From positions 21,516,001 to 21,580,000 of the forward strand of contig CM097885.1 of assembly GCA_044892525.1 (NCBI GenBank): a DNA stretch of 64,000 nucleotides, read 5' to 3'. Below are positions 19,761 through 47,173 of the stretch, in pieces. Source of the DNA: Schmidtea polychroa (Eukaryota). A model generated the notes under the pieces. It saw only the letters and a program-made list of their open reading frames with translations, searched no databases and was not told where the DNA came from. The position numbers and the translations under genes were made by a program. Numbering within the stretch: the first letter of the stretch is position 1; each line of letters begins with the position of its first letter.

Positions 19761-19879
19761 TCAACTCAATTTAATCGCGGTAGGGACGATAGTAGGTGTT
19801 AAAACCGAAGGCGTCTGGGGGTTGAAGAAACCTCATTTAGGGCATTTGAAACCGGTCAGGGACCGAAGACCGCGAATAC

Positions 19880-30200: not shown

Positions 30201-33200
30201 AAAGAGGAAGATAGAGAAAAGACAGCCTTTACCATCGGAAAAGATTTATATCAGTTTAAAAAGATGCCATTTGGATTAACAAACGCACCTGCTTCGTTTC
30301 AGAGATGTATGAACTTTGTGACACACGGGATCAAACAATGTATGGTGTATATCGATGATCTGTTAATTTATTCAGGTACTTTCGAGCAACACTTAATCGA
30401 CATCAGAAACGTATTCATAAGACTGAAACAATGGAAGCTGAAATTGAAACCGTCAAAATGCGACTGGGCAAAGGAGAGAGTCACATTTTTAGGACACATT
30501 GTGTCGGCAAAAGGAAAAGAACCAGATCCGAGAAACGTTGAGAAAATAAAGAATTGTCCGATACCAAAAACCGTGACTCAGGTACAAGAATTTCTGGGAT
30601 TATGCGGATACTACCGCAAGTTTATCAAAAATTATGCAACTATCGCAAAACCAATTCAAGAACTAACAAAAAAAGATACTCCATTTTTGTGGGAAAGAGA
30701 ACAGCAAATAGCATTCGAATCGTTAAGAGATAAACTAATAGCCTCACCTATTCTAATACACCCAGATTTTAAAAAGCCTTTTCTACTAGCAACCGATGCC
30801 AGTGGATATGCATCAGGAGCTGTGCTAGGACAATGGGATGAGGAGAAACGAGAAAGAGTCATCGGATATTATAGCAAGACGTTCAAAAAGCACGAAAAGA
30901 ATTACTCGGTCACAGAAAGAGAAGCCTTAGCAATAATTCAGGCGATAAAACATTTCAAATATTTATTGTGGGGACACGAGATAATTATTACTACAGACCA
31001 TCAACCTCTAGTTTGGTTGGGCCAACACAAAGAAGCATCTAGCCGATTGATGAGATGGGCAATGCAGTTACAAGAATATTCCCCATACATCAAATTCAAG
31101 TCAGGAAAAGCAAACGCAAATGCAGACTGCATGTCGAGATTTGTATTTGAAGAACTCATGGATCATGACGTCAGACGAATATGCCTGATAATCGCGGAAG
31201 ATATCGATTTTACCAATCTAAAGAACGAACAAAAGGAAGACAATGAATTAAAACTAATAATTGAGTTCCTGGAAAAAAACGATATGAAAATATTCAACAA
31301 CGATGATCGACTAAAAGAACACATGGAGAAAAATCGTCACAGATATACGATCGAGAAAGGATGGCTATTGGTAATGGATGGCGACAAACGATTGATGTGT
31401 CTACCAGAAAGTAGACGGAAAGCAATTATGATTCAATACCACGATGGTAAATTGGGCGGACATATGTCAGCCAAGAAAACAGAAGCAAGGCTCAAACAGA
31501 AATATTACTGGCCAAATATGAGCGATGACGTGAAAGAATGGATAAAGAACTGCCTGATATGCGCAACCAGAAAAACAACGGGCAGTAAACTAAAGCCACC
31601 ATTGAAACCAATGCCGATACCGCCAGAACCGATGACAATGATTGCAATGGATGTAGTTGGACCACTACCAGAGACTAACAGTGGAAATGTGTATATATTG
31701 GTAATAACTGATTATCTGACTAAGTTCCCTGAAGCATTTGCGATGCCAGACCAGAAAGCACGAACGGTTGCAAGGATATTAGTGGAAGAGATCTGCTGCA
31801 GATATGGAACACCAAAACAAATCTTAACTGACCAAGGAACTAATTTCATGAGCGAGATAATAAATGAAGTGACAAATTATTTTAGAATTGCCAAATTGAG
31901 AACCTCACCATACCACCCGCAAACGAATGGTCAGACAGAAAGATTTAACGGCATACTAATAGACATGATGTCCAATTACGTGAGTAAACATCAAAAGGAC
32001 TGGGATGAATATATTAAGTTGTGTCTAATGGCTTATCGAATGTCAATACACTCAGCAACGAAAATGAGTCCGTTTAAACTCATGTATGGAAGGGAATGCA
32101 ACATGCCGATGGATCTCGAATACCAACCGCCAATCTCACAATATATGGAGATAGATGATTATGTGACAAAGTTCAAGGAGAGAATGCAAGAAATATGGAA
32201 AACCGCAGGGATGAACATCCGATTCAACCAAGAGAGTTATAAGGAATTACATGATAAAAAGAAGAACGTGCAAAACCATCAATTTAAAATCGGAGATTGG
32301 GTTATTATAGAAACACCCGAATTAATCCCAGGAACAGCAAAGAAATTACAACGTAATGGCAGAGGGCCATATGAAATCATCTATGTAAACGAGAACAACG
32401 CTAGAGTGAAGTTGGTTAACAATCCACTAATTAGACCCATTTATGTGAATACATGTCGATGCAAAGCAGTAGCGAAAACTGCCACTAAAGACCCAGAAAC
32501 AAGAAGGATAATCACGAGATCACAAACAAATGCCACAACGGAACCAGAAGTAAGCGGTAGATTAACTAGATCACAGACAAGACGAATATTCATGTTGAGA
32601 GGAGAAACAAGCAGCAGCGCCCATAAAGGAACTGAAGCAGAAAGCGAAGCTGACGCAATGGCAAGGAGCCAAGCAACATGGAATATGACAATAAAAATAG
32701 CACGAGAAATTGTACCAGAATGGGCCGATATAACCAATAAATACCAAGTATTGGGCAAACTAATGTTAGTAGCAGAAAGATATGCGAAAGGACGAAGATA
32801 TGCCGAAGGATTACAAATACCGACTCAAATATATGAACTAATCCGGAGATTACCAATCATGTTCCTAACAAGTGATTTGAGTAATAACTGGCCAATCCAT
32901 CATGCAGTGAAAGCAGGACAAGAAAAACGAGCTTTAGAGATTATACGAATAATGGAAAACTGCAAACAATCAACAAACGTCAAAAACAGTAAAGGAAAAA
33001 CTCCACTGATGAAAGCCATAGCAATAGGCGCGTCAAGAGATGTACTCAGAGAATTATTAAGAACGGGATCCACGCTGAAAGAAAAAGACAACAAACAACG
33101 AACCGTATTACGTTATGCCGTCAGGTCAAAAAGACCTAGTATAGTGAACTTTATCACAGGAAATGCAACAACCGAAGAAGCCGAGGTGTTGGGACAGAGC

Positions 33201-35348
33201 ATTGAACCAATTCTGGAAGCCATCAGAGGAAACTTAGACAGAACCGCAGCAATATTAATCAAATGGAAACAAAACGAATTAAGAGCGGAAGTAATTGATA
33301 TAAATCAATTCCAAAACAACGAAAATATCGTACTAAGAAGCGCCATATACTCAAGACCACCAATGCCAAAAACCATTAAAGCAATATTACAGAGAAATAG
33401 AACAGAATTGACAGGTAATTGGTGGGAATGCACAAAAACACATGCGATGAAAAAGCAACTAGAAATACTAGTGTGGGAATGGCACCGGAAACAACGGAAA
33501 TATCAAGGAACCAAAGAAGAACGAGAAAGTATCCACAACGACAAAAAAGAGATAATTAAAAAATACGAGGAGATGATCAAAGCAGCAAATGTCGAGGACG
33601 ACATTTTCAGGAAAACCCCGGGTGAGAGGAATGACGACGACGACGACGACGAAAGGATGGGGGATAACGATAACAACCCAGAGGAAAACGACAGAGAACA
33701 GAATCCGGAAGGCGGAGAAACAACGAGTGATGATGAGGAATTGGAAGAAGACGAAGAAGACCAATGTCGAGGTGAAGATCAAGGATTCGACAAAACGGAG
33801 AACAAAAAACGAAAGTCCCCACTACATAGCATAGTGTGTCGAAATCAAATCCAGCCAATCCTACTACAAAGAATATTTATAATATTAACATCCATCTGTT
33901 TAACAGAAACAAAAAATATAAGAATCGTAAGAGAAGCTTCCCAAGAAGGTGAAGCATTTATGATAAAAGTCAGTGATTACGACGGAAATGCCGTCGGAAT
34001 ATGTGTGCAACTAATGGAAGGAACAGGAGTAAGTTGTGATTTCAGATCGATAACAAAAGGAAAGATTTTTAGCAGCCAAAAAAGAGATCCCAGGCTATGT
34101 GGAGATTATGACATCTGTAGAGACATATCAACAGAGGAAATGGAGCTAGAAAGAGCCAACGAAACCGGAGTACATTTTCAACTCAACATTTTGGAAGAAG
34201 GTATCGAAATAGAAGATAAAGGGAGTCGATCAATTACACATGTATGCATCAGAGAAGACAGAGACATATGCATAATAACTGATATGACACAAGACCACAA
34301 ATTCTTCTGGGGAGAGGTCAAACCAAATACCCCTACTGTGGTATGCGCAGGAACACAAGGGATAGTAGTATGTAAAGGAACAAGAACTGCACCAAGAAAA
34401 GACAAGCCAAAGAGTATGGCAATGAAACAAGATCCATTGAGGGGGATAGCAACCAAGAAGCCAAACAAATCAGTTAGTACAAAAACAACAACAGAGCAAA
34501 ATCAAACCGAATTAATAACAACAACAACATGGATTAACGAAGTAATTAAAGACGAAAGACGGGAAGTGCAGATAACTATTAACCTCAACAAGAAAGGTGA
34601 AGAGGTAATTACAGTCAAAAACCAGGAAGGAGAACCAATCATAAGGATATGTGTAATGGATAAGACGGGAATAATCGACTGTACAACAACACCGATAGAC
34701 AAAGGTACAGACGTTAAAATGGAGACAGGGAAACGGAAAGAACGATACCAAGTATGTATCCTTAAGAAAGGAAGAGGAACCAGCGTATGTCAACCAATAA
34801 CTCGACAAAAACCCCAATTAATAAACATACCATGGATACCCCGAGATCAAGAAGGGGGAGAGAAACGGGAAAATCACAGTCACCTAACAGAAAAAGAGAA
34901 GGAACGATTACATCAAGCATTCAAGAAAATCAAAGCACCAGAAACAAATACCACAGGTAGTACAATATTAACGACAGAAAAAACAAATAATGGAACAACG
35001 ATCATCACAAAGATGATATGGATAACTAGCGCGATAGTAAGCACGATAATAGCGTTAGCAATGATTCAGTGGATAAGAACCACCAAAAGATGTAAACAAA
35101 AACCGAGAAACCAAAGAAAATGGCCCAAAGTGGAAAAATTTGAATACGGTATTCCAACAGAGAATCTGAATCTAGAAGAATACGAGGTGGTAGAGGATCC
35201 CGGATCCAGCGGATTGTGGATGTCGGAACTACCAAGAATACCCACACCGAACGAATGGACACACGAAGTCGATATATACCGAATAACGGACGAAAGATAT
35301 GGGGGAATGCGCACGCTGCATTCCGGCCCCATGGCGACACTGGTATAA
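21282..35348 (+). CDS. Giant single-frame Gag-accessory-Env-Pol-accessory polyprotein (~4,688 aa from the first ATG)
   Basis: Uninterrupted frame 21060-35348; first ATG at 21282; domains are listed separately below. Confidence 0.95.
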   Translation: MTDGIPNVTGLTDPPETSNVHVNIGEFREKFRGEPFDGNINQLETFIKEFEVYITICHWPDIVVRERIPLYLKGSAQDVYLEAKCDATKLRTWKEIKEFLIKTFGTEKEGNRKMLDFLHRKQKYNESNALYACELRRLAREAFDSNQPVPEDKIIAVFVDGMKREDIRATLGCRAPETLEEALKIANKCETYLTPIQVAAMTAAPAAPAATATTTNNQVNNANPVMNQFIPGSQQLFKTPQTRNQNNGGNIQNFTNNFRNNDINNRTCNICQRPGHWSNECYKARMCQKCGRRGHTENVCRGPMMSMSRGGTRTCYNCNQPGHMARECTMRTKPNQPGSNNPVQNTQINLMQEIEQLKDMILRIPTNNQQQRINMMQSTEEIRNQPSKQQQDQQRVEWQRLQNEEAREIQERWKQREANPGRINMMRLTNKEESHTAEQCVNNDGSEPIINKEIKTTKENEIDPRTELSSEEKIQLIKEFTKEEKERRQKRDESKDEPKSNEIVTKNRIQRVLLQKIEDRIKNENPTLTEEQIKEKVKEHWFRKNEWFEKKEPHTKAKINMLRQMRSDQTDQEDEKSEVSSLGGELFQSSEENNEPKTPPNSETPQSSEESENDDMKSMIEKDEEEIFEEILDTVTEIERNESYINELTYRKCLKLITQVYQCEGGIITAAWKDLATKYKEKLKEAGPDQYQVSIQHPEIQIQTIELKGTNTDELYNWVQEKMGTSHKNKQLYVDGYKVKIGIHLVDAMIWPNETNILTLEKTRDDDSVAEMFKKIQQVFNNEVEPELEKIERKIMKENQIILVKQAIDQTRKYINRLRERWPQLMKQFVKDVRDTEIMRFEDKRATELISKYGEYERTKCEHETIKIKVKLPNEEKQIIEVNPDCQVDELVQIIDQEIIQKARENSEDGMIEDVIIMYNRHMLERGDRTVIYELGIWENGAVINIIAMDEPSGGHKNATKTEQQIKRFQWGMRAKMDRIIDIYNHWLKDDKLKLAAFNDEDCKLIPWKKVWIESEARWDWEQQKLEPNWIDNIPEEIAAAWVREKPIDTYQDILPQEFQNELPSGEDEEIREPVRLAPFTWKIENWMEKIKSAKEEKITRLVSPPFYSGLGEYKMKLRIYPNGDGIGKGSYVSAFFVICKGNYDDKVPWPFNRKVTIAIEPLKDSLNRHKETLKPDPRSACYQRPTTSENIASGTPKLIRLSYIENEQSKFVKNNAIQIRVEVETEQEMNQRLNIPENQPRICMMRRRVSDSGHLPIDADADEEEAATLLEAQKCKELMEILQNGAKNRRRAVVELAKWIAESCKRIQNLRKIVKAIEEYRRVYVWYPEQFGEIIRKWKQQEWAENSPEKYQLKIFMPDCEPMEKEFYTTAKVREVKKRIPYELPFHLQHEGRSLDDDIEIGVTPLQGEIVNRLTVSKIAGRELRRREIKQKSSTQQPGSLDTPEVPNAVSEVTIETTGEDEILDELQEIVEAGEIMRASQSGDLFIDEGELTTDDLDGFVCAQRQPVETTEAETDLDNVERDANKDVTTTDEWSNWRVDPGATTSKDTTYNPPKRKETGTAMDRRTRGRPKTDKAEIEPKSKVQAQMEQVKTKMDKLSALVKQVKVKTSVREQGTRWINDLLANMLALANPDVKRVMRKDNIPTEAKQLWAVLKPIIMKIMDNKIRLTLKDPVELRLIVEHLLSRSEDQNRFLVGLAYLVYNVIGQYKKRMPKYNATGYEFTVTEIIKRSIEPYILEQGGWRSFIESTGKKDQTEMMQAKLRDLLTEFEGTININDPRASRKGMNAIITTILIWMMCIKGTESFAVYDCDNIKIHEKYSLKDTEDCKAANPRKLQTVMASVSYNVYQEADFIKTMVQECTVTRKIFAHHCGSSSHSTIIEPGLESTVILLSREECEEGFRSGRIHLRQGIEIAAEPGKIKTTRVYTAGRITKGDGTCETGTYTLNGQLVSGVVVIESYEAKLEKYQGYFDPDTQAMKKYPSCLASDRSCSTGMSTLVYHADQKVCRLMLLKTAIFEEIQGKVYSEPKGEAERRAMEELRARKGFREDVITSKLESEVTPTAIISKDDGIGMRFIKNKMVSKCDEMVISTNYKGIYLSRRTLANAVGRLSEKDVKLYLYANNKMDFLYHRGLTSTEKVYHDLLRNDCLLNKEILRTKLAMAITNPDNAIPLLPLQEGYFGRIVGEVMYTYQCKKIMARLPENPTIPRDKCANELEIIHEGKPRFVQAVTRIMNPVGFQPNLFNCSNAYGPMYEKEDGQWVQFPSKTIVVTPKKFGLTELTTELEFKPIDVSQSGLYTPKDLESARAHMLFPAHRQAILSNIVTISGGNNYGGSPNYELLLSPSHYQQATANMMKAMWGRFLVFGQMMAGILGIILIIQIVRVILTQMLACFDIYKRERKVNWKLAIGFLPFLAKTMVLHGHSKDIHRIKRLLKILTQMKGTDEEVGRKFKVIMRLEAERTQEKAKRTGKWKKWMNLRRDDDSDNDNDDFNDDDNNQGGAMLINKNTATWENEKMKPWGSPYSQTPYLQAPTNGPMRRPGTMRERIRMGTGRLPIPNIYPTAYEPNWAAMDPTMIKQAKSVEQEVETRTIAVLQTPAGPSLTITVEVNGIEMDAMIDTGANISAINMNMLPGRLWPCIEETTMDVITCSKQSIAVVGRVWSTIEYKGVKVTTYLAVIRQLSVSCIIGTDVMPELLKEIVIDLSSMKLKDKTGQICTMRTEVRCSEKMIIPARTQTICYVKVDNEAKGDMIFEPSQKFEKRRELPLAREIVSINEDNEIPINITNFDEEDKVIYENERLGKLTPMMNIELPEIKSEGADEKELWTIDSELLNKDEKEQLRQLLIEFKEIFAASDLELGTSDVTQHIIPLTDETPITLRPYRLAEAQKTVAEEEVQKMLDAGVIEPSCSPWQFPVVMVKKKDGTQRFCIDYRRLNAVTKRDTYPLPDINEMLQMLHGAAYFTSLDLKSGYWQIKVKEEDREKTAFTIGKDLYQFKKMPFGLTNAPASFQRCMNFVTHGIKQCMVYIDDLLIYSGTFEQHLIDIRNVFIRLKQWKLKLKPSKCDWAKERVTFLGHIVSAKGKEPDPRNVEKIKNCPIPKTVTQVQEFLGLCGYYRKFIKNYATIAKPIQELTKKDTPFLWEREQQIAFESLRDKLIASPILIHPDFKKPFLLATDASGYASGAVLGQWDEEKRERVIGYYSKTFKKHEKNYSVTEREALAIIQAIKHFKYLLWGHEIIITTDHQPLVWLGQHKEASSRLMRWAMQLQEYSPYIKFKSGKANANADCMSRFVFEELMDHDVRRICLIIAEDIDFTNLKNEQKEDNELKLIIEFLEKNDMKIFNNDDRLKEHMEKNRHRYTIEKGWLLVMDGDKRLMCLPESRRKAIMIQYHDGKLGGHMSAKKTEARLKQKYYWPNMSDDVKEWIKNCLICATRKTTGSKLKPPLKPMPIPPEPMTMIAMDVVGPLPETNSGNVYILVITDYLTKFPEAFAMPDQKARTVARILVEEICCRYGTPKQILTDQGTNFMSEIINEVTNYFRIAKLRTSPYHPQTNGQTERFNGILIDMMSNYVSKHQKDWDEYIKLCLMAYRMSIHSATKMSPFKLMYGRECNMPMDLEYQPPISQYMEIDDYVTKFKERMQEIWKTAGMNIRFNQESYKELHDKKKNVQNHQFKIGDWVIIETPELIPGTAKKLQRNGRGPYEIIYVNENNARVKLVNNPLIRPIYVNTCRCKAVAKTATKDPETRRIITRSQTNATTEPEVSGRLTRSQTRRIFMLRGETSSSAHKGTEAESEADAMARSQATWNMTIKIAREIVPEWADITNKYQVLGKLMLVAERYAKGRRYAEGLQIPTQIYELIRRLPIMFLTSDLSNNWPIHHAVKAGQEKRALEIIRIMENCKQSTNVKNSKGKTPLMKAIAIGASRDVLRELLRTGSTLKEKDNKQRTVLRYAVRSKRPSIVNFITGNATTEEAEVLGQSIEPILEAIRGNLDRTAAILIKWKQNELRAEVIDINQFQNNENIVLRSAIYSRPPMPKTIKAILQRNRTELTGNWWECTKTHAMKKQLEILVWEWHRKQRKYQGTKEERESIHNDKKEIIKKYEEMIKAANVEDDIFRKTPGERNDDDDDDERMGDNDNNPEENDREQNPEGGETTSDDEELEEDEEDQCRGEDQGFDKTENKKRKSPLHSIVCRNQIQPILLQRIFIILTSICLTETKNIRIVREASQEGEAFMIKVSDYDGNAVGICVQLMEGTGVSCDFRSITKGKIFSSQKRDPRLCGDYDICRDISTEEMELERANETGVHFQLNILEEGIEIEDKGSRSITHVCIREDRDICIITDMTQDHKFFWGEVKPNTPTVVCAGTQGIVVCKGTRTAPRKDKPKSMAMKQDPLRGIATKKPNKSVSTKTTTEQNQTELITTTTWINEVIKDERREVQITINLNKKGEEVITVKNQEGEPIIRICVMDKTGIIDCTTTPIDKGTDVKMETGKRKERYQVCILKKGRGTSVCQPITRQKPQLINIPWIPRDQEGGEKRENHSHLTEKEKERLHQAFKKIKAPETNTTGSTILTTEKTNNGTTIITKMIWITSAIVSTIIALAMIQWIRTTKRCKQKPRNQRKWPKVEKFEYGIPTENLNLEEYEVVEDPGSSGLWMSELPRIPTPNEWTHEVDIYRITDERYGGMRTLHSGPMATLV
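21384..22265 (+). other. gag: Gag capsid-like domain and three CCHC zinc knuckles
   Basis: PFDGN..F..EF, YLKGSA, TW..IKE, Q...ES...Y, FVDGM, P.TLEEA; knuckles CNICQRPGHWSNEC, CQKCGRRGHTENVC and CYNCNQPGHMAREC. Confidence 0.92.
24519..24956 (+). other. TRAF-type MATH domain inside the polyprotein
   Basis: FTWKIENW...SPPFYSG..YKMKLRIYPNGDG.GKGSYVSAFFVICKG.YD..VPWPF.RKVT. Confidence 0.92.
26637..28540 (+). other. Envelope-like glycoprotein (chuvirus G / class III fusion-like) with internal signal peptide and TM anchor
   Basis: Signal-like MNAIITTILIWMMCIKGTES, then AVYDC..YSL....C..VYQ..V.EC.V...HCG..SHS and a Cys-rich ectodomain, then W.RFLVFGQMMAGILGIILIIQIV. Confidence 0.75.
29080..32470 (+). 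other. pol: Pol: aspartic protease, RT, RNase H, integrase
   Basis: IDTGA (29130) and IIGTD; LDLKSGYWQ, MPFGL and YIDD (30348); TDAS, EREALA, TDH and NADCMSR; HHCC zinc finger (H..GH..CLIC), MDVVGP, TDQG and GQTERFN. All catalytic residues are present. Confidence 0.98.
32883..33270 (+). other. Ankyrin repeats (about 3-4) downstream of integrase
   Basis: WPIHHAVKAG, NSKGKTPLMKAIAIG...LLRTG, DNKQRTVLRYAV, PILEAIRGN. Confidence 0.85.
33858..35348 (+). other. C-terminal type I membrane protein module
   Basis: Signal-like RIFIILTSICLTET, paired-Cys beta-rich repeats, Thr-rich stalk, TM MIWITSAIVSTIIALAMIQWI followed by a basic stop-transfer and a tail. Confidence 0.7.
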
Positions 35349-35496
35349 CGAGAGGAGGAGTTGTTGTAAATAATGTATAAATGAAATGATAAAAGTAGTG
35401 ATAATAGTAGTGGTATGTACAAAATAAAAGTAGTAAATTAAAACAATATGTAGAAAAATCAAAAACAAGTATGATGACCATGTATTATAAATAGGA

Positions 35497-35952
35497 ATGA
35501 ACCAGAGAAACGAAGAGCAAGAACACCCAAATGGGATACCACATATTGTTGAAGTAAGAGAACAGCCGCTTATGAATGTACATCCAGTAGACATGATGGA
35601 AATGAACGTGCCAAACCAGCCGAGTCAGCCAACAGGATCCATGTGGAGGGCACAGTGTGAATTAATGACCCAATTGACAAATCAGACTCAAGAGCACTGG
35701 GTACGAAACCAAACGGCGTTGATAGAGAGTATTAATAGAAATGCAATATATATTACAAAAATAGAGGAACAACACCAAATAATCGCGCAACTAGAGTATA
35801 ATAACAATCAGTTAATAAGCCAAATCAGATGGCAAGCGGAAGAAATTAGAAGGTTGCATGAAAATCGACAACATGATGATATTACCAGTTTAGTCGAGTG
35901 GATGACCGGGTTACCAGGAACAGGGGAACCGGACTCGACGGTAGATGTGTAG
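35497..35952 (+). CDS. Accessory 151-aa coiled-coil protein, unknown function
   Basis: Intact ORF with the element's codon bias and cassette-type flanking motifs. Confidence 0.7.
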   Translation: MNQRNEEQEHPNGIPHIVEVREQPLMNVHPVDMMEMNVPNQPSQPTGSMWRAQCELMTQLTNQTQEHWVRNQTALIESINRNAIYITKIEEQHQIIAQLEYNNNQLISQIRWQAEEIRRLHENRQHDDITSLVEWMTGLPGTGEPDSTVDV

Positions 35953-36041
35953 GAGAAAAAGGAGTGAAATGTAAATAATCCTGTAAATAAATAGAGTTAT
36001 AATCAAGTAGAAATCCCAAGATTAAAAATCATCATTGTAGA

Positions 36042-37466
36042 ATGCAAAACAAAGCAGAGGAAAACCGGAGAGAAGCAGAGGAACAAAAGATTAACTATGA
36101 GTTGATGAGAAAATACCAAGCCGAGCCGGACGAGTTCGAAGAGAGATTATTATGTGCCGATACAGCATGTAGAAGATTATTAATTGGAGCAAGTCAAACT
36201 CGATGCGGGTGTAGATTGTGCCGAGGGTGTGATATAAGATTAGCCAGACTAAAGCGAGAAACTTGTCCAGGATGTGGAGAAGCATTTAAGTTGGTTCCCA
36301 CTGGTACGATACCGGATAGAGCAATGAACCGAGAAATCAGAGAAGTGAAAATAAGATGCACCCAAAGGTCATGCGAATGGACAGGCCGAGTAAAGGAGTT
36401 AAGAGCCCATACAGACGTATGCGAATATCTAGAATCGGAATGCGAAGCATGCACGGTAAAGTTTTTACGAAAAGAGAAAACCAAACATAAAGGGGAATGC
36501 AAAGCGCGAACGGAAAAATGCGAATTTTGCGGAGAAACTGCTAATTGGAGAGAAATCGAAATGGAACATCGAAACGCAGTAGAAAGACGGATTTGCGACG
36601 AATATACAGGGAAATGCCCAAACGAGTGTGGAGAAATTAACAACGTCAGATTAAATGAACATTGGGAGATATGCACGAGAAAAGCAATAAAATGCCCAAT
36701 GGTGACATTCGACTGTAGAGCACAATTACCAGCAGAAGAAATGAAGAAGCATGTGGAGGAGAATACATTCGAGCACATGCAAAAGATGATGAGAGCAATA
36801 GAGTTAACAGCAAGAGCAATTGAAGACGTCAAAGACGAACTCAAATCACATAAAATCATGATAAAAGAAATGCTGAGCTCACAGGAAAGCTTCGAAAATA
36901 CGAGAGAAGCCGTAACACAAAGGATGTTGAAATTAGACGACAAATTAGTCGAAGTAACTAAATTACAAACCAAATGGACTACAAAGGAACTGACAACAGA
37001 GGAACTACCAATACTACCATACATGTGGAAAATCCAAGGAATAACGGAAATAATGGAGCAAGCAAAGCAAGGAATCCAGACAACGATAGTGAGCAAACCA
37101 TTCTACGCCAAGAAACATGGATACAAGATGAAATTGAGATGGTTTCCAAATGGTGAAGGAAAGTTTAAAGATCGGTGCATGTCCATATATATGCAAATTT
37201 GTAAAGGAGATTTTGACGACCTAATAGCATGGCCATTCCGACATCGATTAAAAATATCTCTCTTAGGAGCAAAAAAGACACATATAATGTGTTTTCGAGC
37301 ATCCAGTCCAGCAGGGAATAAACCGATTACAGAGGTTAATCCTGCGGTAGGAGTAGCAGAGTTTATGCAGCTATACCAATTTAACGAAGGGTCCTACATA
37401 GAAAAGGACACTATATTCTTCCTAATCGAACTAGATGAGGAAGGACCAACAATAGAAATACGATAG
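36042..37466 (+). CDS. Full-length TRAF-like protein (RING, zinc fingers, coiled coil, MATH), intronless
   Basis: C..C..CGCRLC..C..CPGC RING; C...CEWTG....L..H...C TRAF zinc fingers; YMWKI...SKPFY...GYKMKLRWFPNGEG...KGDFDDLIAWPF. Confidence 0.95.
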   Translation: MQNKAEENRREAEEQKINYELMRKYQAEPDEFEERLLCADTACRRLLIGASQTRCGCRLCRGCDIRLARLKRETCPGCGEAFKLVPTGTIPDRAMNREIREVKIRCTQRSCEWTGRVKELRAHTDVCEYLESECEACTVKFLRKEKTKHKGECKARTEKCEFCGETANWREIEMEHRNAVERRICDEYTGKCPNECGEINNVRLNEHWEICTRKAIKCPMVTFDCRAQLPAEEMKKHVEENTFEHMQKMMRAIELTARAIEDVKDELKSHKIMIKEMLSSQESFENTREAVTQRMLKLDDKLVEVTKLQTKWTTKELTTEELPILPYMWKIQGITEIMEQAKQGIQTTIVSKPFYAKKHGYKMKLRWFPNGEGKFKDRCMSIYMQICKGDFDDLIAWPFRHRLKISLLGAKKTHIMCFRASSPAGNKPITEVNPAVGVAEFMQLYQFNEGSYIEKDTIFFLIELDEEGPTIEIR

Positions 37467-37606
37467 ACGGATAGAAGGGAACTGTAAATATTTTGTAAAA
37501 ACGATGTAAAGTAAATATAAAGTTATTGTATACAGTAAAGTAACGTGCCAAAACCATAAAAATTAGAAAAAGAAAATGTAAAAAGAAATGATGAAATTTA
37601 TTATAG

Positions 37607-38785
37607 ATGATTAATCAAGAGAGACCGAATATCCGAAAGAAAACGATCACAATGAGAGAGGAAGAGGACAATATGTCACCTAGAGAAAGAGTGAAGGATG
37701 CGGAAGTCAGCAAAACAAAACCAAGTAGTTACGCATATTATCGGAGAATGGGAAACGATTATAATTGGGTACACGAAAATTTGAAACTGGGAAATAATGA
37801 ACAATTCAGATGTGAGAACCAGAGATATCTGTCATTTGAACATCAGACCATTTTTACCAAGGAACAAAGCCGAGCGCTAGCACGCGACGGATTTTTCTTC
37901 TCCGGAAAACCAGAGATACCCGATCAAGTAACATGTCGTTTCTGTAAAGGGAAATTAGCAGAATGGAAAAAAGGAGAACACCCAAAGGAGGAACATCGTA
38001 GACGATTCCCAACTTGTCTATTCGTACTGGGATTTGATGTACACAACAAACCGGAAATCAAATACGAAGCCTTGGAGAAATTGAAAACTGAAGACGAAAA
38101 AGGAGGGAAAATGAGCATCGCGATAACCAGAATCGTTGATGAGTATGTTCCAACTTGTGAAGGGGAATTCCTCACGCAAATAGCAGATAATAGAATGAAA
38201 ACGTTCGGAGATGATACGAGAGGACCTGAATTAGCAATAAGAGGGTTCTACCTAACAGAAAATCAAATACTAAAGTGTGAAAGATGCGAAAGCCAACAGA
38301 GATTACCGGAAGAAGGCATACCAGAAATTAGACATCAAGCATGGTGCCTATATCACAACGAACAAGAAACCGAATATCCGGAAGTACTAGTAACAGAGGA
38401 AGAGGTTGACGAAGTGGTAGACAAACCCAACATGTGCAGAGCGTTGAAAGCAGCCGGAATAGGCACGACAAGGGCAAAGAACATGATTAGAGAGAAACTA
38501 CAGAAAAATGTACATATACCAACAACAACGTACGATATGATCAGAGCGATAACCCAGTATAGAGAAAAACCTGAAACAAAAATAAAAGAAGAATCAATGG
38601 TCAAAACAGCTATCTTACGAGATATCAAATGTACTATGTGTTGGGAGAGGAGTGTAGAAGTTATTCATATGCCATGCGGACATTTGATCGCATGTGCCAC
38701 ATGTAGTAGAAAAGTAAAGGAATGTCCGATGTGCAGACAGAGGATTGCGCAGCGAATCAAAGGATTCCGCTACGCCGATCAATAA
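37607..38785 (+). CDS. Inhibitor of apoptosis (BIR, degenerate BIR, C-terminal RING), intronless
   Basis: RYLSF...LARDGFFF...DQVTCRFC...W..GEHP..EH....PTC; second RMKTF..LAIRGFY..C..C..H...C; CTMC...PCGHLIACATC...CPMCR. Confidence 0.95.
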   Translation: MINQERPNIRKKTITMREEEDNMSPRERVKDAEVSKTKPSSYAYYRRMGNDYNWVHENLKLGNNEQFRCENQRYLSFEHQTIFTKEQSRALARDGFFFSGKPEIPDQVTCRFCKGKLAEWKKGEHPKEEHRRRFPTCLFVLGFDVHNKPEIKYEALEKLKTEDEKGGKMSIAITRIVDEYVPTCEGEFLTQIADNRMKTFGDDTRGPELAIRGFYLTENQILKCERCESQQRLPEEGIPEIRHQAWCLYHNEQETEYPEVLVTEEEVDEVVDKPNMCRALKAAGIGTTRAKNMIREKLQKNVHIPTTTYDMIRAITQYREKPETKIKEESMVKTAILRDIKCTMCWERSVEVIHMPCGHLIACATCSRKVKECPMCRQRIAQRIKGFRYADQ

Positions 38786-38867
38786 CAAAAATTAAAATTC
38801 CGTGTATAAAGTGTAGATAATAAATGTATGAAATAATAGTGGTAGTAATAGTGTAATTATTTAGACA

Positions 38868-40466
38868 ATGAATAAAGAATCACAAACCTATGTGGAAACC
38901 GAGATGCAACAACTCGAACAGTACAAATCCATCATACAAACATACGAAGCAGAAAGAGTAAAGAGAGAAATAGAAATGTACAAAACCATGTATGAGAAAA
39001 AGCAACAAGAATTAGAAGCGGAGAAGGCGGAAGCACTAGCAACAAAGGAGGAGTGGATGAAACAGGTAGAGGAATTAACCGAGGATGTGAGAAATACCTC
39101 AACATACCAAGAATTGGAGGAAGAGCTCTCGAATTTACGAACTCAGCGGATTATGGAGATAGTTGGGTTATGCGGAGAGATAATAATGCAGAAGGCACAA
39201 ATTAGGGAAGCAAAGGAGCAATACGAGGAGGAACAGCGTAAAACGGAACGAATAAAACTACAAGCGCAACAATGGAAACTAAAGTACGAAACCCTCCAGA
39301 CAAGGCAGAATGATAGTCACGAACATCAAATACGGAATTACAAGGCCGAACTAGAAGAAGTAAAGGGCAAATGCGCAATGATGAAAGAAAAATGGGAAAG
39401 ATGCAAAAAGACCCTAAACGAAGTCAGAGGGCAAGGGAGGAGAACACCGCATAGAGAACCAATTGTTAGAGATAACGTATTAGAGCGAATTAACACACAA
39501 ATAAAGATACAAGCCCAGAAATGGAAGTATAAATACCGAGGAAGTCAAACTCAAGTGCTATATTGGAAAATCAGTAGCAAGGAACAACTGCGATTACGAA
39601 AAGCAGACCAAGAATTTTACGAAACAAGAGCTGCACAGCGAGAAGAAGAGGAAGTAGAGTGGAGAAAACGACAGCAGAAAACTGAGGAAACCGAAAAGTG
39701 TCTCAAGCATCAAGCCCGAAAATGGAAAAAGAATTGGAAAGAGACCAAAGAGGAGTTAAGACAGTTACCAATAAAACTGATGGAAAGAGACGAATTTAAA
39801 ATATGGGAAACGATAGAAAACCAAAAAGATGAGATCAGCCGATTGAGTAGAGAACATAGAATCAAGACGCGGATCAGCGACGGTAGACAGAGAATCATAA
39901 AGAAACAGACTCGAGAAATAAGAAGGTATGAATTCCAGGAAAAGAGATGGGAACAACAATTGACAGACCAAGATCGACAGATCCGACAATTACAAACTGA
40001 AGTGGAAGAAGCCAATCAAGAGATGAACGGATATAAAGGTATGTACACCCAAAGGGATGTGAATTGGAAGCACCAGATTGAGCTTAATGCGAAATATAGA
40101 GAGGAGTGCGACAAGACAATTCAACAAACCAAACAGGAAACCGAGATAATAAAACGATGCTTCGAAGAAAATGAAGCAAATTTGAGAGCGGAAATTGAGA
40201 AACTAAAAACGCTCGAAAGAACCCAACGATTGGAAGAGGAATTAAACGAAATGATAGAAAACGAAGGTAGATTAACGTTTTTATTGGATGAGGAAATAAA
40301 CATCTCAACGGAACTACGAGAGGAAATAGATCGGTTAAGGAGACAACCACCAATATTATTAATGCCACTCTACCCGTTCCCGTTGCAAGTGCCACAGCCT
40401 GCCGAAGTCACCACAGATGAAGGCTTCGATGAAAATAACGAACAAAATAACGCAACATGGATTTAG
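38868..40466 (+). CDS. Accessory 532-aa long coiled-coil protein
   Basis: E/K/Q/R heptads throughout, a repeated QA.KWK motif and a Pro-rich C-terminus. Confidence 0.8.
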   Translation: MNKESQTYVETEMQQLEQYKSIIQTYEAERVKREIEMYKTMYEKKQQELEAEKAEALATKEEWMKQVEELTEDVRNTSTYQELEEELSNLRTQRIMEIVGLCGEIIMQKAQIREAKEQYEEEQRKTERIKLQAQQWKLKYETLQTRQNDSHEHQIRNYKAELEEVKGKCAMMKEKWERCKKTLNEVRGQGRRTPHREPIVRDNVLERINTQIKIQAQKWKYKYRGSQTQVLYWKISSKEQLRLRKADQEFYETRAAQREEEEVEWRKRQQKTEETEKCLKHQARKWKKNWKETKEELRQLPIKLMERDEFKIWETIENQKDEISRLSREHRIKTRISDGRQRIIKKQTREIRRYEFQEKRWEQQLTDQDRQIRQLQTEVEEANQEMNGYKGMYTQRDVNWKHQIELNAKYREECDKTIQQTKQETEIIKRCFEENEANLRAEIEKLKTLERTQRLEEELNEMIENEGRLTFLLDEEINISTELREEIDRLRRQPPILLMPLYPFPLQVPQPAEVTTDEGFDENNEQNNATWI

Positions 40467-40498
40467 TCGAAGGGAGATGTTGCCTGTAAATAAGAATG

Positions 40499-40544
<46 letters not shown>
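40499..40544 (+). repeat. 46-nt poly(A) tract between accessory ORFs
   Basis: Pure A run starting 33 nt after the stop at 40466. Confidence 0.9.
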
Positions 40545-40546
<2 letters not shown>

Positions 40547-40629
40547 AAAACCAAATAAAAATTACAAAACCAAAAAATTCAGAATAAAAAGAAGACAAAA
40601 GGAAATATGATATGTATATTTTTGTAGAT

Positions 40630-41397
40630 ATGAATTATTTAAAAGAAAGAGAATCAACGAGTAACGAAGGAAAGTCAAACGACCAACCTGAACAAAACCA
40701 GGATATGATACCAATCAAACAAGAACCGATGAAATATTATAGCAATAAATGGAGAGTCAGCAAGAAGTTGTTCAAATTAAAGATTGCAAATCAAAATGTA
40801 GAGATTACGAGATTGAGGCAGCATATTGTTCAATCAAGACGATTAATAAACACTGTCAAACAAGAAATTTTGAGGGAAATAAAGGAATCGAAACGAAAAG
40901 AGACAGAAAATAAAAACCTGAGACAAGAGATAGTAGAGTTGAGAGCTCAGGCAGTAATCGAAGATTATTGGAAATCAGAAACAAGGAAGTTGAAAAAGAT
41001 TGTGAATATCGACCAAGTCTATATCGAGCAGTTAGAAGCACAATATGCTTATGCAAAAACAAGAGTGCGAGAAAGTAAAAAAGTCGAGAAGAGAAATGTA
41101 AAACTCAAGGAAGAGATCAAGGAACAAAGAGAGGAAACAGAAAAACAATGGAAGTTGAAAGAAAATTACCGGAGAATCTTAAATCAAAAACGACGAAGCA
41201 TGCAAGCATTGCAGACGGCAATAACCATCAAGCAGAGAAAATGGAAAAGTAAAGAGAAGCAATTACAAGAAATACCAGAATTAAAGAGACAGTTGATAGC
41301 AACGCAACTCGAAGTAATAAGAATGAACGAGTTGAGCAAAAGACGAGCACCTGAACCTCCCGTAAAATTAAGGGATGAGGTCGGTGGCTCCCAATAA
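40630..41397 (+). CDS. Accessory coiled-coil protein (probable start 40630), probable paralogue of 38868-40466
   Basis: ORF 40612-41397; the second ATG follows ttttgtag; KW..IANQNVEITRL resembles KW..IENQKDEISRL. Confidence 0.75.
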   Translation: MNYLKERESTSNEGKSNDQPEQNQDMIPIKQEPMKYYSNKWRVSKKLFKLKIANQNVEITRLRQHIVQSRRLINTVKQEILREIKESKRKETENKNLRQEIVELRAQAVIEDYWKSETRKLKKIVNIDQVYIEQLEAQYAYAKTRVRESKKVEKRNVKLKEEIKEQREETEKQWKLKENYRRILNQKRRSMQALQTAITIKQRKWKSKEKQLQEIPELKRQLIATQLEVIRMNELSKRRAPEPPVKLRDEVGGSQ

Positions 41398-41473
41398 ATG
41401 AGACAAAATAACCGTGTAAATAAATTGTAAATAAAGCCAAGTAATTATTATTAACATATATGTATATGTAAAG

Positions 41474-42460
41474 ATGAGAAGCCTAATCGTGATGATGATT
41501 ATAATGACAATGCCAAAAATCCTGCAAGCAGAAGAATCAATGATCAGATGCCAGAAAGAATACCCATATCGCAGAGAAGATAGTACATGTAGTAGCTTTA
41601 AATCGATCTGCGAAAAACCCAATGAGGAATGCGAACAAATCAAGTTACAATGTTCGCAATGTCCACAAACAACTGAAAGTTCGACGGAAGTGCAAATGGC
41701 TCAGACAATAAAAACAATGTTAGAACAAGAAATGAAAGTTATCAGAACCCAGATAGCAACATTAGCCAAACAATGTCAAAGTCAGAAATCAAAGAGAGAA
41801 TCCCAAACAGATCCAGCCGCAATGAGAATGATGGTAATAATATTAGAGGAAATAAAACAACAGGTAACAGCAACCGCCTATGGACGTTCAAGCAATTGCG
41901 AAACAGTAGTAAAATCTTTGGAGGAAATGAAAGGAAAAATAACTTCCATCATCAAAGAGGAACCCAGCATTAAAAATGAGGTAACGAAAACCTTGAAAGA
42001 AATGACAAGGGAAATCCTAACTACCATAAACAAAAACCCAACGAACTCCGAGAAGATGATTAAAACCCTTGAGGCAATAAAGAAAGTTGTCACCTCAGAA
42101 GAAAACAAATTCAATAAGCCCGAAAAATCAGAAACGGCGGATACAACCCAATTAAAAGAAATTATGAACAAACCCAAAGTAATAGAACCGAGAGAGTCTG
42201 AATCCCTCACAATATTGATCCTATTAGCGGCGAGCCTAATGATAAACATCACCGTACTGAGCCTGATTGCACTCAAACCCAATTCCAGTAAAGAAAGAAA
42301 CAAAACCCTCAAACTAAAGGAACAATCAAGAAGTATTCGTATCCCAATGGAAGAACAGCTAGTCCAAACAACGAACCAACCAAGCTACTTCAAATCTTCC
42401 CCAAACATTGAAACCAGAGCCGTCATCGAGACGAGATCCCGAACAACCGAATTTTATTAA
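41474..42460 (+). CDS. Accessory type I membrane protein (signal peptide, 6-Cys head, helical stalk, TM)
   Basis: N-terminal MRSLIVMMIIMTMPKILQA; Cys cluster; three K[ST]L.E[MI] helical repeats; TM LTILILLAASLMINITVLSLIAL. Confidence 0.8.
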   Translation: MRSLIVMMIIMTMPKILQAEESMIRCQKEYPYRREDSTCSSFKSICEKPNEECEQIKLQCSQCPQTTESSTEVQMAQTIKTMLEQEMKVIRTQIATLAKQCQSQKSKRESQTDPAAMRMMVIILEEIKQQVTATAYGRSSNCETVVKSLEEMKGKITSIIKEEPSIKNEVTKTLKEMTREILTTINKNPTNSEKMIKTLEAIKKVVTSEENKFNKPEKSETADTTQLKEIMNKPKVIEPRESESLTILILLAASLMINITVLSLIALKPNSSKERNKTLKLKEQSRSIRIPMEEQLVQTTNQPSYFKSSPNIETRAVIETRSRTTEFY

Positions 42461-45400
42461 TGTGACATCACGACAGTATAAACATTTCATGACATTATAA
42501 AACATTATCAAACAATCATGATTTCAAAGACTGAGACTGATTATGACTAATAACATTGATTCTTGAGCATGATAATTTTATTTTTGTGTGGACCGACCTC
42601 GGTCGTTCTTTTTCTTCATCTTTCAACCCATCCGTAGAATGTAGTATAATAGTAGCCTTTTTATGTATGTGGGTATTGAGGTCACGACCCTGTAGCTCGT
42701 AGACCCAATTTGCATGTAGGCACTTGTAATATAGTGCAAGTATTCTGAAAAATAATTTTCTTCATCTTGTGATTTAAATTGCGGGTCGCAATTTTATGGG
42801 CCCCCGAGTGTTTTATGTTGGGCTAGAACTGACTTCTAGACCCAAACTTGAATTGTGACTGAAAGGTGCAGGTACACAACATGCAAAAGCAAGACGTTTA
42901 GCTAAATATTAAAATTACATCAAATAAACAATATTAACTAAAGGAGAAAGCAACAAAAACATAAACAAAGAAATTAAACAAAATTATACAAAAGCAAGAA
43001 GTGATGCAAAAATCTAACTCAAAAATAACCAAATAAACACAGAGTTACAAAAAACAGACTCGAATAACTTAAAAGACGATAAAAACAGTAAAACATTCCA
43101 GAAAAACCCAGAACATTCTATAAAAATGGCGATGACCATCACAAAAGTCATCTAGAACAACAAAAGTTAAGGAAAATAAATAAATTAGTATTAAAAATAA
43201 TAAATCTTTAAAAGAAATTCACAAAACATCAGTTAAAATAAAAATTAAATTAAAAATAAAATAGAATGTTCTGGAACCGTTCCAAATCCATCATGGACGG
43301 CAAATTAACGAAAAATAATTAAAAAATAAAAATATAAAAATAAAAACAAAAATTATGGCACAAAAATTGTCATTAAAAATAGCAAAATCGCTAAATAGAA
43401 AATTCTGGAATAAAAAGAATTCGAGTTTGTTTTAATGCATCAATACATACACGTGTACTAAATAGGTATATATACTGACACGTTTCAGTCACAATCAATC
43501 ACTTTTATGCCAAATTTTTGTGACGAAATTTCCAAAATCGATAGTAAGCATTGATCTTTATTTGTATATTAATTGTTTAATTATATAGATGGTATTTTAA
43601 ATTTATTTTTGCTTAAAATTTTTTGCGATGTATGAGTGATCAACGGCGTACTGGTATTCCTGCGTCGTTGTTCAGTCCTGCATCCAATTTATTAAAATCG
43701 TTATTAACAGGACATGCAGACACGCATTATCATTATTATAGTGATATTTATTATATGATTTCTTTTTGTTCGGGTCAGCCGGAGGTCGAACTACTTCATG
43801 GTCCTGCCATGGAGTTAGGTCGAGGAAACCCTCCGCCTGACTCTTTGTATTTATTCAAGGTCAACCGTAAATGGTTGACTTAGCACACAACACTAAGGTT
43901 TGTAGAAGTGGTCACAGTGGGGCCATGGAAGCAATATTCTTCCCGACTTTCGTTTAATACACATGAAAAATCCACATTCAAAATCATAAACAACGACTCC
44001 ACACTAAGGTCCTAAATTGAGTAGAGCTCATACCTAAACTTACACAATTCTGCAAGCACATTAATGTAGTTGGTTGATCAATAATAATATTTTGGTACAC
44101 TTGGACATATGCCGAATTAGGTTTGGTAATAGGAGCCCATGGTAATTGGAATAATAGAAATGGTAAAATTCTTCGGCCTATGTCTAAGTAGAGCTTAAAT
44201 TTGGATAGACCTGTGAATAAATCACCGACTTAATGAACCCAACGTAAGGGAAAAAGTTATAAATTTAAAAGAATCCCGAATCTAAATTCTCACTGTAACA
44301 TATTCCTAAAGGTATAAATAATTGATTATAACTTTTATAAATAACTATAATAGCTTGGAGATAATTATATTGATAAATTATAGACCTAAAACCGTAAATT
44401 ACTGAATATAAAACTACCAACTATAAATTAAAAACTTAAATTTCTAAATTGTAGACTTTAAAAGTGTAAAGTATAATCATAAAGTCTAAAATACCGAATA
44501 TAGTATTATAAGTTATAAACTATACAACTATGGATCAAAAATCTAAACTGTAGATCATAAAAGGGCAAATCATAACGATGAAGTCTGAAATGTAAGAGCG
44601 TAAAATGTGGAATATAAATTGTCAGCAAAAACTATATAATCATAAAGTAAAAATCTAAATTTCTAAATAGTAGACTATAATTGTATAAATCATAACCATT
44701 AAGTCGAAAACATAACGTCGTAAAATATTGAACAAAAAATTTAAACCATATAATCATAAATCAAGAATCCAAATTTCTAAATGGTAGACCATGAAACTAT
44801 AAATCTGAAAATAGAAAATTAGGAAGTAAAAAATATAAAATGGTAAAATGTTAAATAAACAATTTATAAATTATAAAGTGTATGATGAGAACTTCTAAAG
44901 TATGAATTTATAAACTGTAAGATAAAAAATTGAAAATCGTAGACGAAAACCTGTAAAGTGCAAAATGTAACCTTCGAACTCATAAAATATGAATCCCTAA
45001 ATTGTGAAAGCCAAAATACGAATGGTAAAATATAAAGTTATATTATCACTATTATTATTAGTGTTGCCATTATCATTATTACTATTATTATTGCTATTAT
45101 TGTTCTTATTGCTATCCTTATTGTTCTCATTATTATTATTATCATTATTGTTATTATGACTATTACTATTATTATTATTACCACTACGATCATTTGTTAT
45201 CCTCGTTATCACCATTTTTACGGTTATGATCATAATTAGTATTACTTACTAGGAAAGCAAAAAATCAATTATTGATTTTTTCCCCATATCTAGATTTGGA
45301 GTCAATTCTTTTGCCCAATAAAAACGTTCCTAACTGAAAATCTATATTTAGCAACACCCCCCCCCCCAGAGAAACCTTAAGGAAAAATTCAAGACGGGGC

Positions 45401-46127
45401 TATGACAATCAAGAGTTTCCAGGAGATGGTGAGGATGACTCCGGCGAACCATGCAATTGAATAAATAAGCCATAATTCGCAGAGATTTACCTACATACAG
45501 AATACAAATATTCCCGAAAAATTTCCAATTTTCGGCGAGGGACAAATTGCGGGTCCAAATCAAATATTGGGCATGAAATGTCATTCCCTGGGAAGAACTA
45601 TGGGAAGACTACTCCAAGCTAATATATTCCCCTTACTCGATCGAGGTTCCTAATGTTATCGCCTAAAAATTAAGGAAGTAAAAAAATCAAATAAATTACT
45701 TGCATGTAGAGCAAACCACTCATAACGAGCACAACCGAAGGAAAGGTAAGCAGACGAAGAGCTTAGTTCGTTGCTAGTACCTGTCGCCCCAGCGTGCCCG
45801 AATTTAGTGGCCTAAAAATGACGATCTAAAAAAATTCACATTTTATTAACATATAAATTAAAATTTATAAATAGTAATTAAAATTGCCACTCGGTGGTAA
45901 GCAGGATTTTGAATGGAAATGATTGATTTAAACAAACGAATTTTGACGAAATTTTTTTTTTGTGTTTGTTTTGATAAAGTAGGAAATCTTATTCCACTGC
46001 TCCTAAGCTTATAGATGTTAGTCTTAAAATAAAATATTTTTTTAAAAGGGAAAAAGGGTCAACAAAATCTTGTGGTTGACGTCGTATCTCAATCAGCATA
46101 GAGGGGCTTGATTATTATTTTGTAGAA

Positions 46128-46493
46128 ATGTCCTACTCTGACAGCGATAGCCACGAAGAAGCCGACCGACAGATGCTTACCAGACTCCGTACACGGTACA
46201 TATGGCACCGTATCCATGATTGGAATCGGGGTTTGGACCTCGACAACTTTGGCCCAGTAATCAGGAGTGGGCCGGAGCCGGACGCTCCGGCGTGGGTAAA
46301 AACAGAGCCCACAAACGATTTTTTGCAAGAGGCCCGCGACCGAGCGGCCATCGAGGTAGAAGCAGCTCAGATGCGACTCAAGAAGATCGAGCTACAAATC
46401 CAAGCAGAAAAAGAGGGAAAAACCGTGGAGGACCTAGAAGAGGCCGAGGCAACCCCGCGGAAGAGGGGAAGGCCTCGCAAGCGACTGAACTGA
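46128..46493 (+). CDS. 3' LTR copy of the AT-hook ORF
   Basis: Translation identical to 15822-16187. Confidence 0.7.
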   Translation: MSYSDSDSHEEADRQMLTRLRTRYIWHRIHDWNRGLDLDNFGPVIRSGPEPDAPAWVKTEPTNDFLQEARDRAAIEVEAAQMRLKKIELQIQAEKEGKTVEDLEEAEATPRKRGRPRKRLN

Positions 46494-46702
46494 CTCGTCG
46501 TCAAAATTTTGTTTTTGCAAATTAACATTCAGTTGCGATTTTATTAAACTTTGATTTTAGTGATAATTATTTCAGTCCTTTTAATAAATCATCTTGTGTA
46601 TTGCGTGCTTAACATCCGAAACTATGTTTATTTATAATATTGATTTTATTTTATAATTGAATGAATAGTATGCTGCAAGAATATAATCGTTGAATTTATC
46701 TA

Positions 46703-47173
46703 GTGTTCAGACTATTGGAAAATCTGCGAAGAGATAGGGCAGAAGCTCAAAAACAGTCCGAGGAGCTCCGCATACGAGTAGACAAGCTCAAGGGACGGTG
46801 CCGGGAACTAGAAAGCACCTGGTTTAGTCCCGAGGATATGAAAAAGAAGGTGGCGCAGGTCCTTCAACTGCAGTCTCAAGCCGCGCAGGATCAGATGGAG
46901 ATCCGGGCACTGAAGCTCCAGCTCCGCGCGCTAGAAACCGAGCGAAATGAACAAGTAGTTCACGGAGCCGCCATAAGCCAAATCCGGCCGTTGACCGTGG
47001 AACTAGCAGCAATATACCCCCCGGCCGCGAAAGAGAAACCCAAAAGAAAGCGGTTAGGCCGAAATATTCGGGAAAAATTGAAGAAAGCTAGACTGGCCGA
47101 ATACGAGCGACAAGCAAATTCGTCACTAGCAGCTGCGACGGAATTGGCCAGTCCTACCAATAAGCCTGTTTGA
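46703..47173 (+). CDS. 3' LTR copy of the coiled-coil ORF
   Basis: Translation identical to 16397-16867. Confidence 0.6.
   Translation: MFRLLENLRRDRAEAQKQSEELRIRVDKLKGRCRELESTWFSPEDMKKKVAQVLQLQSQAAQDQMEIRALKLQLRALETERNEQVVHGAAISQIRPLTVELAAIYPPAAKEKPKRKRLGRNIREKLKKARLAEYERQANSSLAAATELASPTNKPV

Follow-up and report, generated by a model that had tools for sequence, protein, structure and literature searches.

The window analysed here, 64,000 nt of the Schmidtea polychroa genome (assembly GCA_044892525.1, contig CM097885.1, positions 21,516,001 to 21,580,000 of the forward strand), contains a complete Burro-type gypsy long terminal repeat (LTR) retroelement on the plus strand at 12510..47570, 35,061 bp in length and bounded by a 4-bp target duplication, ATAG. 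The spacers between the genes in the 3' part of this element carry two recurrent signals: an acceptor-like AG just before the start codon of the next gene, and a motif of the form TGTA(A/T)A(T/A)A a short way past the stop codon of the preceding one. The conservation of these two signals, and what may read them in the RNA of the element, are the subject of this report.

The 5' LTR (12510..17264; 4,755 bp), which contains two small open reading frames (ORFs), differs from the 3' LTR (42816..47570) by a single mismatch, and the 40 copies of the element that were scored are 99–100% identical. All genes between the LTRs lie on the plus strand. A RING ORF (17990..18472), with an acceptor-like TAG abutting its ATG, precedes a polyprotein of 4,688 aa (21282..35348) in which a Gag knuckle, MATH domain, mononegavirus-type fusion protein, protease (PR), reverse transcriptase (RT), RNase H (RH), integrase (IN) and ankyrin repeats are recognized. 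The accessory genes are a 151-aa ORF (35497-35952), whose predicted 3' splice site AG at 35493..35494 ends 2 nt before the ATG; a TRAF-like ORF with zf-TRAF and MATH domains (36042..37466); an IAP-like ORF with BIR and RING domains (37607..38785), whose ATG is abutted by TAG; a 532-aa ORF for which no Pfam match was found (38868..40466), with an acceptor AG ending at 38864; a further ORF without Pfam match (40630..41397), the likely start of which at 40630 stands behind an acceptor AG ending at 40627 rather than at the first in-frame ATG (40612); and a last 3' ORF of 328 aa (41474..42460), in which AAG abuts the ATG. The size above 30 kb, the multi-kilobase LTRs, the target duplication and the primer site agree with a Burro-type element, as does a single polyprotein that places a fusion protein between gag and PR-RT-RH-IN and adds MATH and ankyrin domains. 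By comparison of this layout with the published description (PMC6431247), the element is a young Burro-type giant gypsy retroelement.

The motif follows six consecutive stop codons, from that of the polyprotein to that of the penultimate ORF. Its occurrences are pair 1 at 35365..35381 (TGTAAATA at +17 from the stop and TGTATAAA at 35374, +26), pair 2 at 35970..35989 (TGTAAATA twice, at +18 and, from 35982, at +30), pair 3 at 37483..37501 (TGTAAATA at +17 and TGTAAAAA at 37494), pair 4 at 38803..38819 (TGTATAAA at +18 and TGTAGATA at 38812), a single site at 40485..40492 (TGTAAATA at +19, behind which stands a genomic A-run that varies in length), and pair 6 at 41415..41433 (TGTAAATA twice, at +18 and from 41426, both running into AATAAA). 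An earlier note on this DNA had placed all six first sites correctly, five as TGTAAATA and the one at 38803 as TGTATAAA, together with the second copies at 35982, 38812 and 41426 and a GGAGATGTTG common to 18473 and 40473; the second copies at 35374 and 37494 are new here. The fixed distance of 17–19 nt that it proposed has to be widened, since the motif lies at +16 to +19 among copies of the element and at +14 to +23 across families. The A-run behind the single site was considered as a captured poly(A) tail and rejected, because the run is genomic, varies in length and recurs in the homologous spacer of a sister family. In several spacers GTAGT/ATAGT repeats, which resemble Musashi elements, stand behind the motif (window 35395-35415 and 38835-38850; polyprotein spacers of two metagenome relatives, L100 and L101).

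The motif is usually paired, sense-only and restricted to the spacers between the 3' genes. The 680 nt of spacer hold seven sense copies of TGTAAATA and no antisense copy, and the 6,432 nt of accessory coding sequence contain none; in three elements the sense to antisense ratio of the motif in spacers is 7:1, 8:0 and 11:0. A second site lies 9–12 nt behind the first in five of the six window spacers. When the six spacers were shuffled 5,000 times with dinucleotide composition preserved, TGTA[AT]A[AT]A was aligned within one 3-nt window in at most three of six (three shuffles), compared with six of six observed; this pattern was chosen post hoc, and the independent test is that of the 12 spacers unused for discovery, given below. 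The motif is present where more genes come after the stop and absent after the RING ORF (AATAAA at +14), after the LTR ORFs and after last ORFs, including the 328-aa ORF of the window element with its U-richer flank; flanks at such places are mostly U-richer and often contain a hexamer.

Selection on the two signals was assessed in 50 copies, hand-picked from 150 BIR matches to favour differing scores; these copies share descent, so that substitution counts are not independent events. Substitutions affected 10 of 2,198 positions in first motif sites and 1 of 1,880 in second sites, which are no less fixed, and 2 of 554 positions in the AG that precedes the following start codon. By comparison, third codon positions were substituted at 9,054 of 98,731 and the stretch between stop and motif at 470 of 4,647, such that the motif changes at 0.05–0.5% of sites against about 10% alongside. 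That same intervening stretch is the one the earlier note had described as GGAG-rich, a property that is not conserved and that is absent from the sister family and the metagenome relatives; a role for it is not supported. Variants shared among copies were seen at 1 of 48 first-motif sites, 0 of 40 second-motif sites and 0 of 12 AG positions, compared with 37 of 101 in the stop-to-motif stretch and 692 of 2,138 third positions. The conserved block, 8–9 nt long, has a sharp left edge at the T before GT and extends to position 9; the four bases upstream of it vary freely. As judged by these substitution patterns and by retention in distant families, both the motif and the pre-ATG AG are shown to be under purifying selection.

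The distant families consist of a sister family with three subfamilies, reached by a pattern search, and the two metagenome elements, found by their fusion protein only. Sister-family polyproteins are 55–65% identical to that of the window element and the accessory proteins 25–33%, and the gene order is the same minus the IAP gene. One sister-family spacer served to find the family; among the remaining ones, TGTATATA lies at +14 behind the polyprotein and at +16 behind the TRAF ORF, and, except after one ORF, the others have TGTAAATA or TGTATATA between +17 and +23. The metagenome elements, with pol 42–44% identical and unrelated accessory genes, carry TGTAAATA at +19, +17 and +18. In the 12 spacers unused for discovery, TGTA.ATA was found at +14 to +23 in six, compared with a maximum of two in 3,000 shuffles. 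The length of the spacers ranges from 55 to 334 nt and the stop-to-motif distance does not vary with it, which indicates that the anchor is the upstream stop. Since elements with unrelated accessory ORFs share the grammar, it is older than the cargo genes. Beyond these relatives, no motif follows the polyprotein in families C and D, and in family A the motif at this place, at +21, is imperfect. Fusion-domain searches of the protein set and of the viral contigs returned nothing, three viral-contig matches were ordinary elements without the motif, and most of what family searches with BIR, RING and MATH retrieved belonged to the window element's own family or to host genes. Eighteen of the places given by the pattern search were inspected more closely, with 4 proving Burro-like and 14 unrelated. 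Genome-wide, that pattern had 3,293 matches against 2,654 for a control, a bare enrichment that argues against a general host signal, and among 20 flanks of host TRAF genes TGTAAATA occurred in one, at +38.

Several further observations were made on these relatives. In the sister family (G000:C1 near 17.53 Mb; L061, L064, L065) the spacer after a 345-aa ORF lacks a stop-proximal motif and holds two or three tiny hairpins, several of them with a loop that contains TGTA, plus an A-run as in window spacer 5. Fourteen metagenome proteins are Burro-like gag-env-pol polyproteins (P0039-P0063), from which the lineage may reach beyond its known hosts, and both metagenome elements bear exonuclease accessory genes (L100 12169-13473, L101 10617-12107). 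In the host, a cluster of near-identical TRAF genes (G000:C2, ~115-121 Mb; L021-L040) has AATAAA 19–25 nt past the stop. A strong donor-like GTAAGT or GTATGT is found downstream of the motif in the sister polyprotein spacer (+32/33), in L101 (+29, +106, +136) and near window position 35413.

The second signal, overlooked in the earlier note as was the Burro-type nature of the element, is the acceptor before the ATG. TAG or CAG ends 0–6 nt before the ATG at 31 of 35 gene starts, compared with 82 of 456 methionine codons within genes; shuffling gives a mean of 9.2. For six of these starts the second in-frame ATG was taken, and the remaining ones give 25 of 29. Of the four starts that lack TAG or CAG, three have AAG instead. 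Is such an AG ever used? One natural copy, at G000:C3 near 110.69 Mb (L102), precisely lacks a 70-nt stretch corresponding to window positions 35971..36040 (plus strand), which runs from the GT of the first motif after the 151-aa ORF to the AG before the TRAF-like ORF. The copy is near-full-length and 95–96% identical to the window element, its other covered spacers are intact, and there is no microhomology at the loss. It was found by searching for TRAF starts with foreign upstream sequence, so that the right end of the loss is partly set by design and the left end is not; only 14 of the 1,830 possible deletions in this spacer would be GT-AG. The precise GT-to-AG loss is best understood as the trace of a reverse-transcribed, partly spliced RNA, and it shows, for one event in one spacer, that this AG functions as an acceptor and that the motif GT is able to serve as a donor. 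Genome-wide start patterns for further spliced copies, which fit some subfamilies only and cover all but the last two acceptors, gave no match for the IAP ORF, none for the 151-aa ORF and two unrelated ones for the 532-aa ORF, and among 21 other deletions in the 50 compared copies there was no second precise loss. Four sequencing runs, which may all be DNA, covered 33500-40495 with the first four spacers and contained no splice joints, leader or poly(A) ends.

What could read the motif? Across four families, 22 first TGTA sites lie at +12 to +25, a set that includes sister subfamilies and is thus not independent. At position 5, 13 of them have A and 9 have T; positions 6 and 8 are A without exception, 20 sites have T at position 7, and no more than 7 have A at position 10. 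The Pumilio response element UGUANAUA with a free position 5 is matched by 20 of these 22 first sites, and each of the six window spacers holds at least one match. A host Pumilio gene, its exons read from open frames, contains all eight repeats, and these carry the canonical recognition residues. In its base pattern the motif is best matched by a Pumilio footprint, not by a poly(A) hexamer. The suggestion of the earlier note that the six ORFs share a stop-anchored, RNA-level signal, for which it listed the Pumilio element as one known match, is supported by this pattern, by the strand bias and by the conservation across copies and families. It is our working interpretation, to which we give slightly less than even chances, that the motif is a conserved, sense-only UGUA(A/U)A(U/A)A site pair read by a Pumilio-type protein on the spliced, nested messages of the element. 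A role in stem cells is plausible from the literature: the planarian DjPum is reported as expressed in neoblasts (PMC5855632), Burro RNA as abundant in neoblasts (PMC6884822) and as intestinal upon loss of smedwi-2 (PMC8532177), and the Burro1 protein B-IAP as protecting stem cells (Lee 2026, as cited in PMC13465017).

The proposed mechanism begins with splicing, in which a common leader in cis, or the host spliced leader in trans, would be joined to each AG to give one message per gene; planarians are known to trans-splice (PMC10899757). The messages would likely continue through the downstream genes to a U-rich end behind the last gene or in the LTR, so that internal stops acquire kilobase-long tails. 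Pumilio would dock 14–23 nt downstream of the stop codon, immediately beyond the terminating ribosome, where its effect would be local to that stop, and the weak donor inside the motif would allow occasional splicing to the next acceptor. The shortest distance, about 14 nt, agrees with the stretch that a ribosome covers there. The rationale for a local action is that every site is individually conserved, even the first one, which would have ten more sites downstream in its own message, and this points to a job at the stop in use. One such job would be to shield the stop from being treated as premature by nonsense-mediated decay. This proposal, made by analogy, is tentative and on balance doubtful; it is favoured over ordinary Pumilio repression through the motif, which we hold to be nearly, though not quite, as likely.

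Several observations weigh against this interpretation. Of the 11 window sites, three match Pumilio poorly, with A at position 7, and yet are equally conserved, and the predicted accessibility of the sites is mixed (unpaired 0.05–0.88). One sister-family ORF lacks the motif in all three subfamilies though another ORF follows; in L100 three ORFs lack it, including two of the three internal ORFs followed by another; and in L101 the last ORF has it, at +35. No conserved donor was found in the LTR or leader across families. A titles-level literature survey returned no report of Pumilio shielding an RNA from decay, and Pumilio normally destabilises RNA. Finally, the only direct functional trace is a splicing event, which fits a donor equally well.

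The last point leads to the possibility, which we regard as unlikely but serious, that the motif serves mainly as a weak 5' splice site, with exons running from the pre-ATG AG to the GT 14–23 nt past the stop and with spacers as retained or removed introns. The short distance would then keep the junction in the zone that escapes junction-triggered decay, or would place the next ATG 15–22 nt past the stop for re-initiation; splicing from the motif GT would leave a stop-to-ATG distance of 15–22 nt in 20 of 21 spacers. The L102 loss is exactly such an intron, and the absence of the motif from terminal ORFs would follow if a donor is not needed there. The bases themselves do not suit this role, since T at −1 and A at intron position 5 are invariant and all six host donors inspected by eye in two genes have G at one of these positions. 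Moreover, the redundant second site is as conserved as the first, in the sister family the same 8-mer also occurs a few bases upstream of acceptors, a position from which it could not act as a donor, and the GT-to-AG distance in that family's last spacer is merely 28–41 nt. Precise losses amount to one in four genome-wide acceptor searches and none in the 50 copies, and the motif GTs would also be the best donors available for a cryptic event. Operon-like processing, by which tandem UGUA bound by CFIm and a weak hexamer end the message in the spacer and a spliced leader is added at the next AG, appears improbable to us. The spacer lengths, the host's possession of CFIm25, the AATAAA that host TRAF genes often carry 18–25 nt past the stop, the known trans-splicing of planarians (PMC10899757) and the sites that run into AATAAA (three of four in L100/L101 among them) all suit it. 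Against this, positions 6–8 are kept and positions 9–10 are not, some spacers contain neither AATAAA nor ATTAAA, and the T content of spacers is 0.11–0.34 compared with 0.34–0.56 in 13 host flanks, so that the conserved hexamer and U-rich downstream flank of a CFIm-type poly(A) site are not what is found. Planarian poly(A) sites are described as U-rich and without UGUA, with CFIm59/68 not found (PMC5068929), and six internal ends would cut the genomic RNA. The CFIm and 3'-end reading raised in the earlier note is weakened on all these grounds.

A reading at the DNA level is less probable still. In this case a TATA-like box or forkhead site would drive an internal promoter for each next gene, and TGTAWAWA does differ from TATAWAWR at position 2 only, with an A/T tolerance at positions 5 and 7 that is the TATA pattern and that accounts for the position-7 exceptions. 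The G at TATA position 2 is a known non-functional change, and the motif is tied to the upstream stop, not to the downstream start (motif-to-AG distance 28–317 nt). It is absent from the LTR and leader, where promoters lie, and the AGs behave as acceptors, as in L102. The strict strand bias and the A-to-T change at position 5 further weaken the forkhead site listed in the earlier note. That the motif is the neutral leftover of one duplicated spacer module, as a 10-mer common to two spacers might suggest, is effectively refuted by a substitution rate 20- to 200-fold below the flanks and by its retention in elements with unrelated accessory genes.

Other features of the element concern its LTR and leader. 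The LTR ORFs lie at 15822-16187 and 16388-16867 in window coordinates of the 5' LTR, are carried by both LTRs and have homologues in related LTRs. The first ends in a basic AT-hook-like motif, and in the second the frame stays open for 48 codons before the ATG, with acceptor-like AGs ahead of this stretch, so that a single regulatory protein may be encoded by the two ORFs as exons. The polyprotein frame is likewise open for 103 codons before its first ATG (20973-21281; 91–185 codons in relatives) with protein-like sequence, and a non-AUG or spliced start is possible. The LTR also holds a degenerate GTAAA/ATAAA-rich repeat tract (14080-14730), and the leader a 131-bp tandem repeat (19876-20190), with tandem repeats in the leaders of relatives too. 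The primer-binding site (17270-17290) is common to all families checked and resembles the 3' end of tRNA-Pro. An Rfam search gave no match and a tRNA gene search found none.

The element belongs to a known kind; what is new, provisionally, is the grammar of splice sites and post-stop motifs. Our literature search found no report of Burro splice sites or Pumilio sites, and because the two main Burro papers, Grohme 2018 and Lee 2026, which may describe the transcripts, lie outside its coverage, this novelty is provisional. The passages of PMC10558129 and PMC11410931 drawn on here are silent on the motif. A question of which the literature covered gives no account is how at least eight genes of a retroelement are expressed from a single promoter. 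The grammar offers a base-level, testable account for Burro elements, in which the acceptors and a protein are named and a naturally occurring spliced copy is at hand. We conclude that it is a real and deeply conserved RNA grammar in a known element, and that the mechanism proposed for it is built on inference. If the shield exists, it would be a new job for Pumilio. More speculatively, and with little expectation that it holds in full, a plug-in cassette of acceptor, ORF, stop and paired Pumilio sites over a weak donor might let giant enveloped retroelements add captured host genes, with Pumilio turned from repressor into a stop-proximal shield that permits expression of the cargo, the anti-apoptotic IAP among it, in no cells other than stem cells rich in Pumilio.

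In complex retroviruses and the adenovirus late unit one leader is spliced to many acceptors, and nematode operons have short spacers. The window element is like these systems in having an acceptor right before each start codon and short spacers, and it differs in that the leader donor and the use of a spliced leader are inferred only. Burro elements are, to our knowledge, the largest LTR retrotransposons. Burro1/GYPSM1 are giant gypsy retrotransposons of dugesiid planarians, as reviewed in PMC6431247 after Jurka 2007 and Grohme 2018, and they share with the window element a size above 30 kb, long LTRs, one huge ORF with Gag, MATH, an env in frame between gag and pol and ankyrin, and accessory ORFs with BIR and coiled-coil domains; the parts of that review used here are silent on acceptors at accessory ATGs and on a post-stop motif. 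The likeness to UGUANAUA and to paired Nanos response elements (PMC5855632) lies in an 8-mer with a free position 5 that is sense, post-stop and paired, and the difference in that the sites here occur once per gene inside a mobile element, are tied to the stop within about 10 nt, overlap a usable donor and have companions that often carry A at position 7. The RNA stability element of Rous sarcoma virus, bound by PTBP1 (PMC4764554), is likewise a host-protein site placed right after a retroviral stop with a long tail and dependent on its position. It is about 400 nt long, pyrimidine-rich, single and tested, compared with an 8-mer pair at up to six stops that is known here from sequence alone. 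As the closest tested precedent it is the reason, together with the argument for a job at the stop in use, why we lean toward a Pumilio that would protect long-tailed messages.

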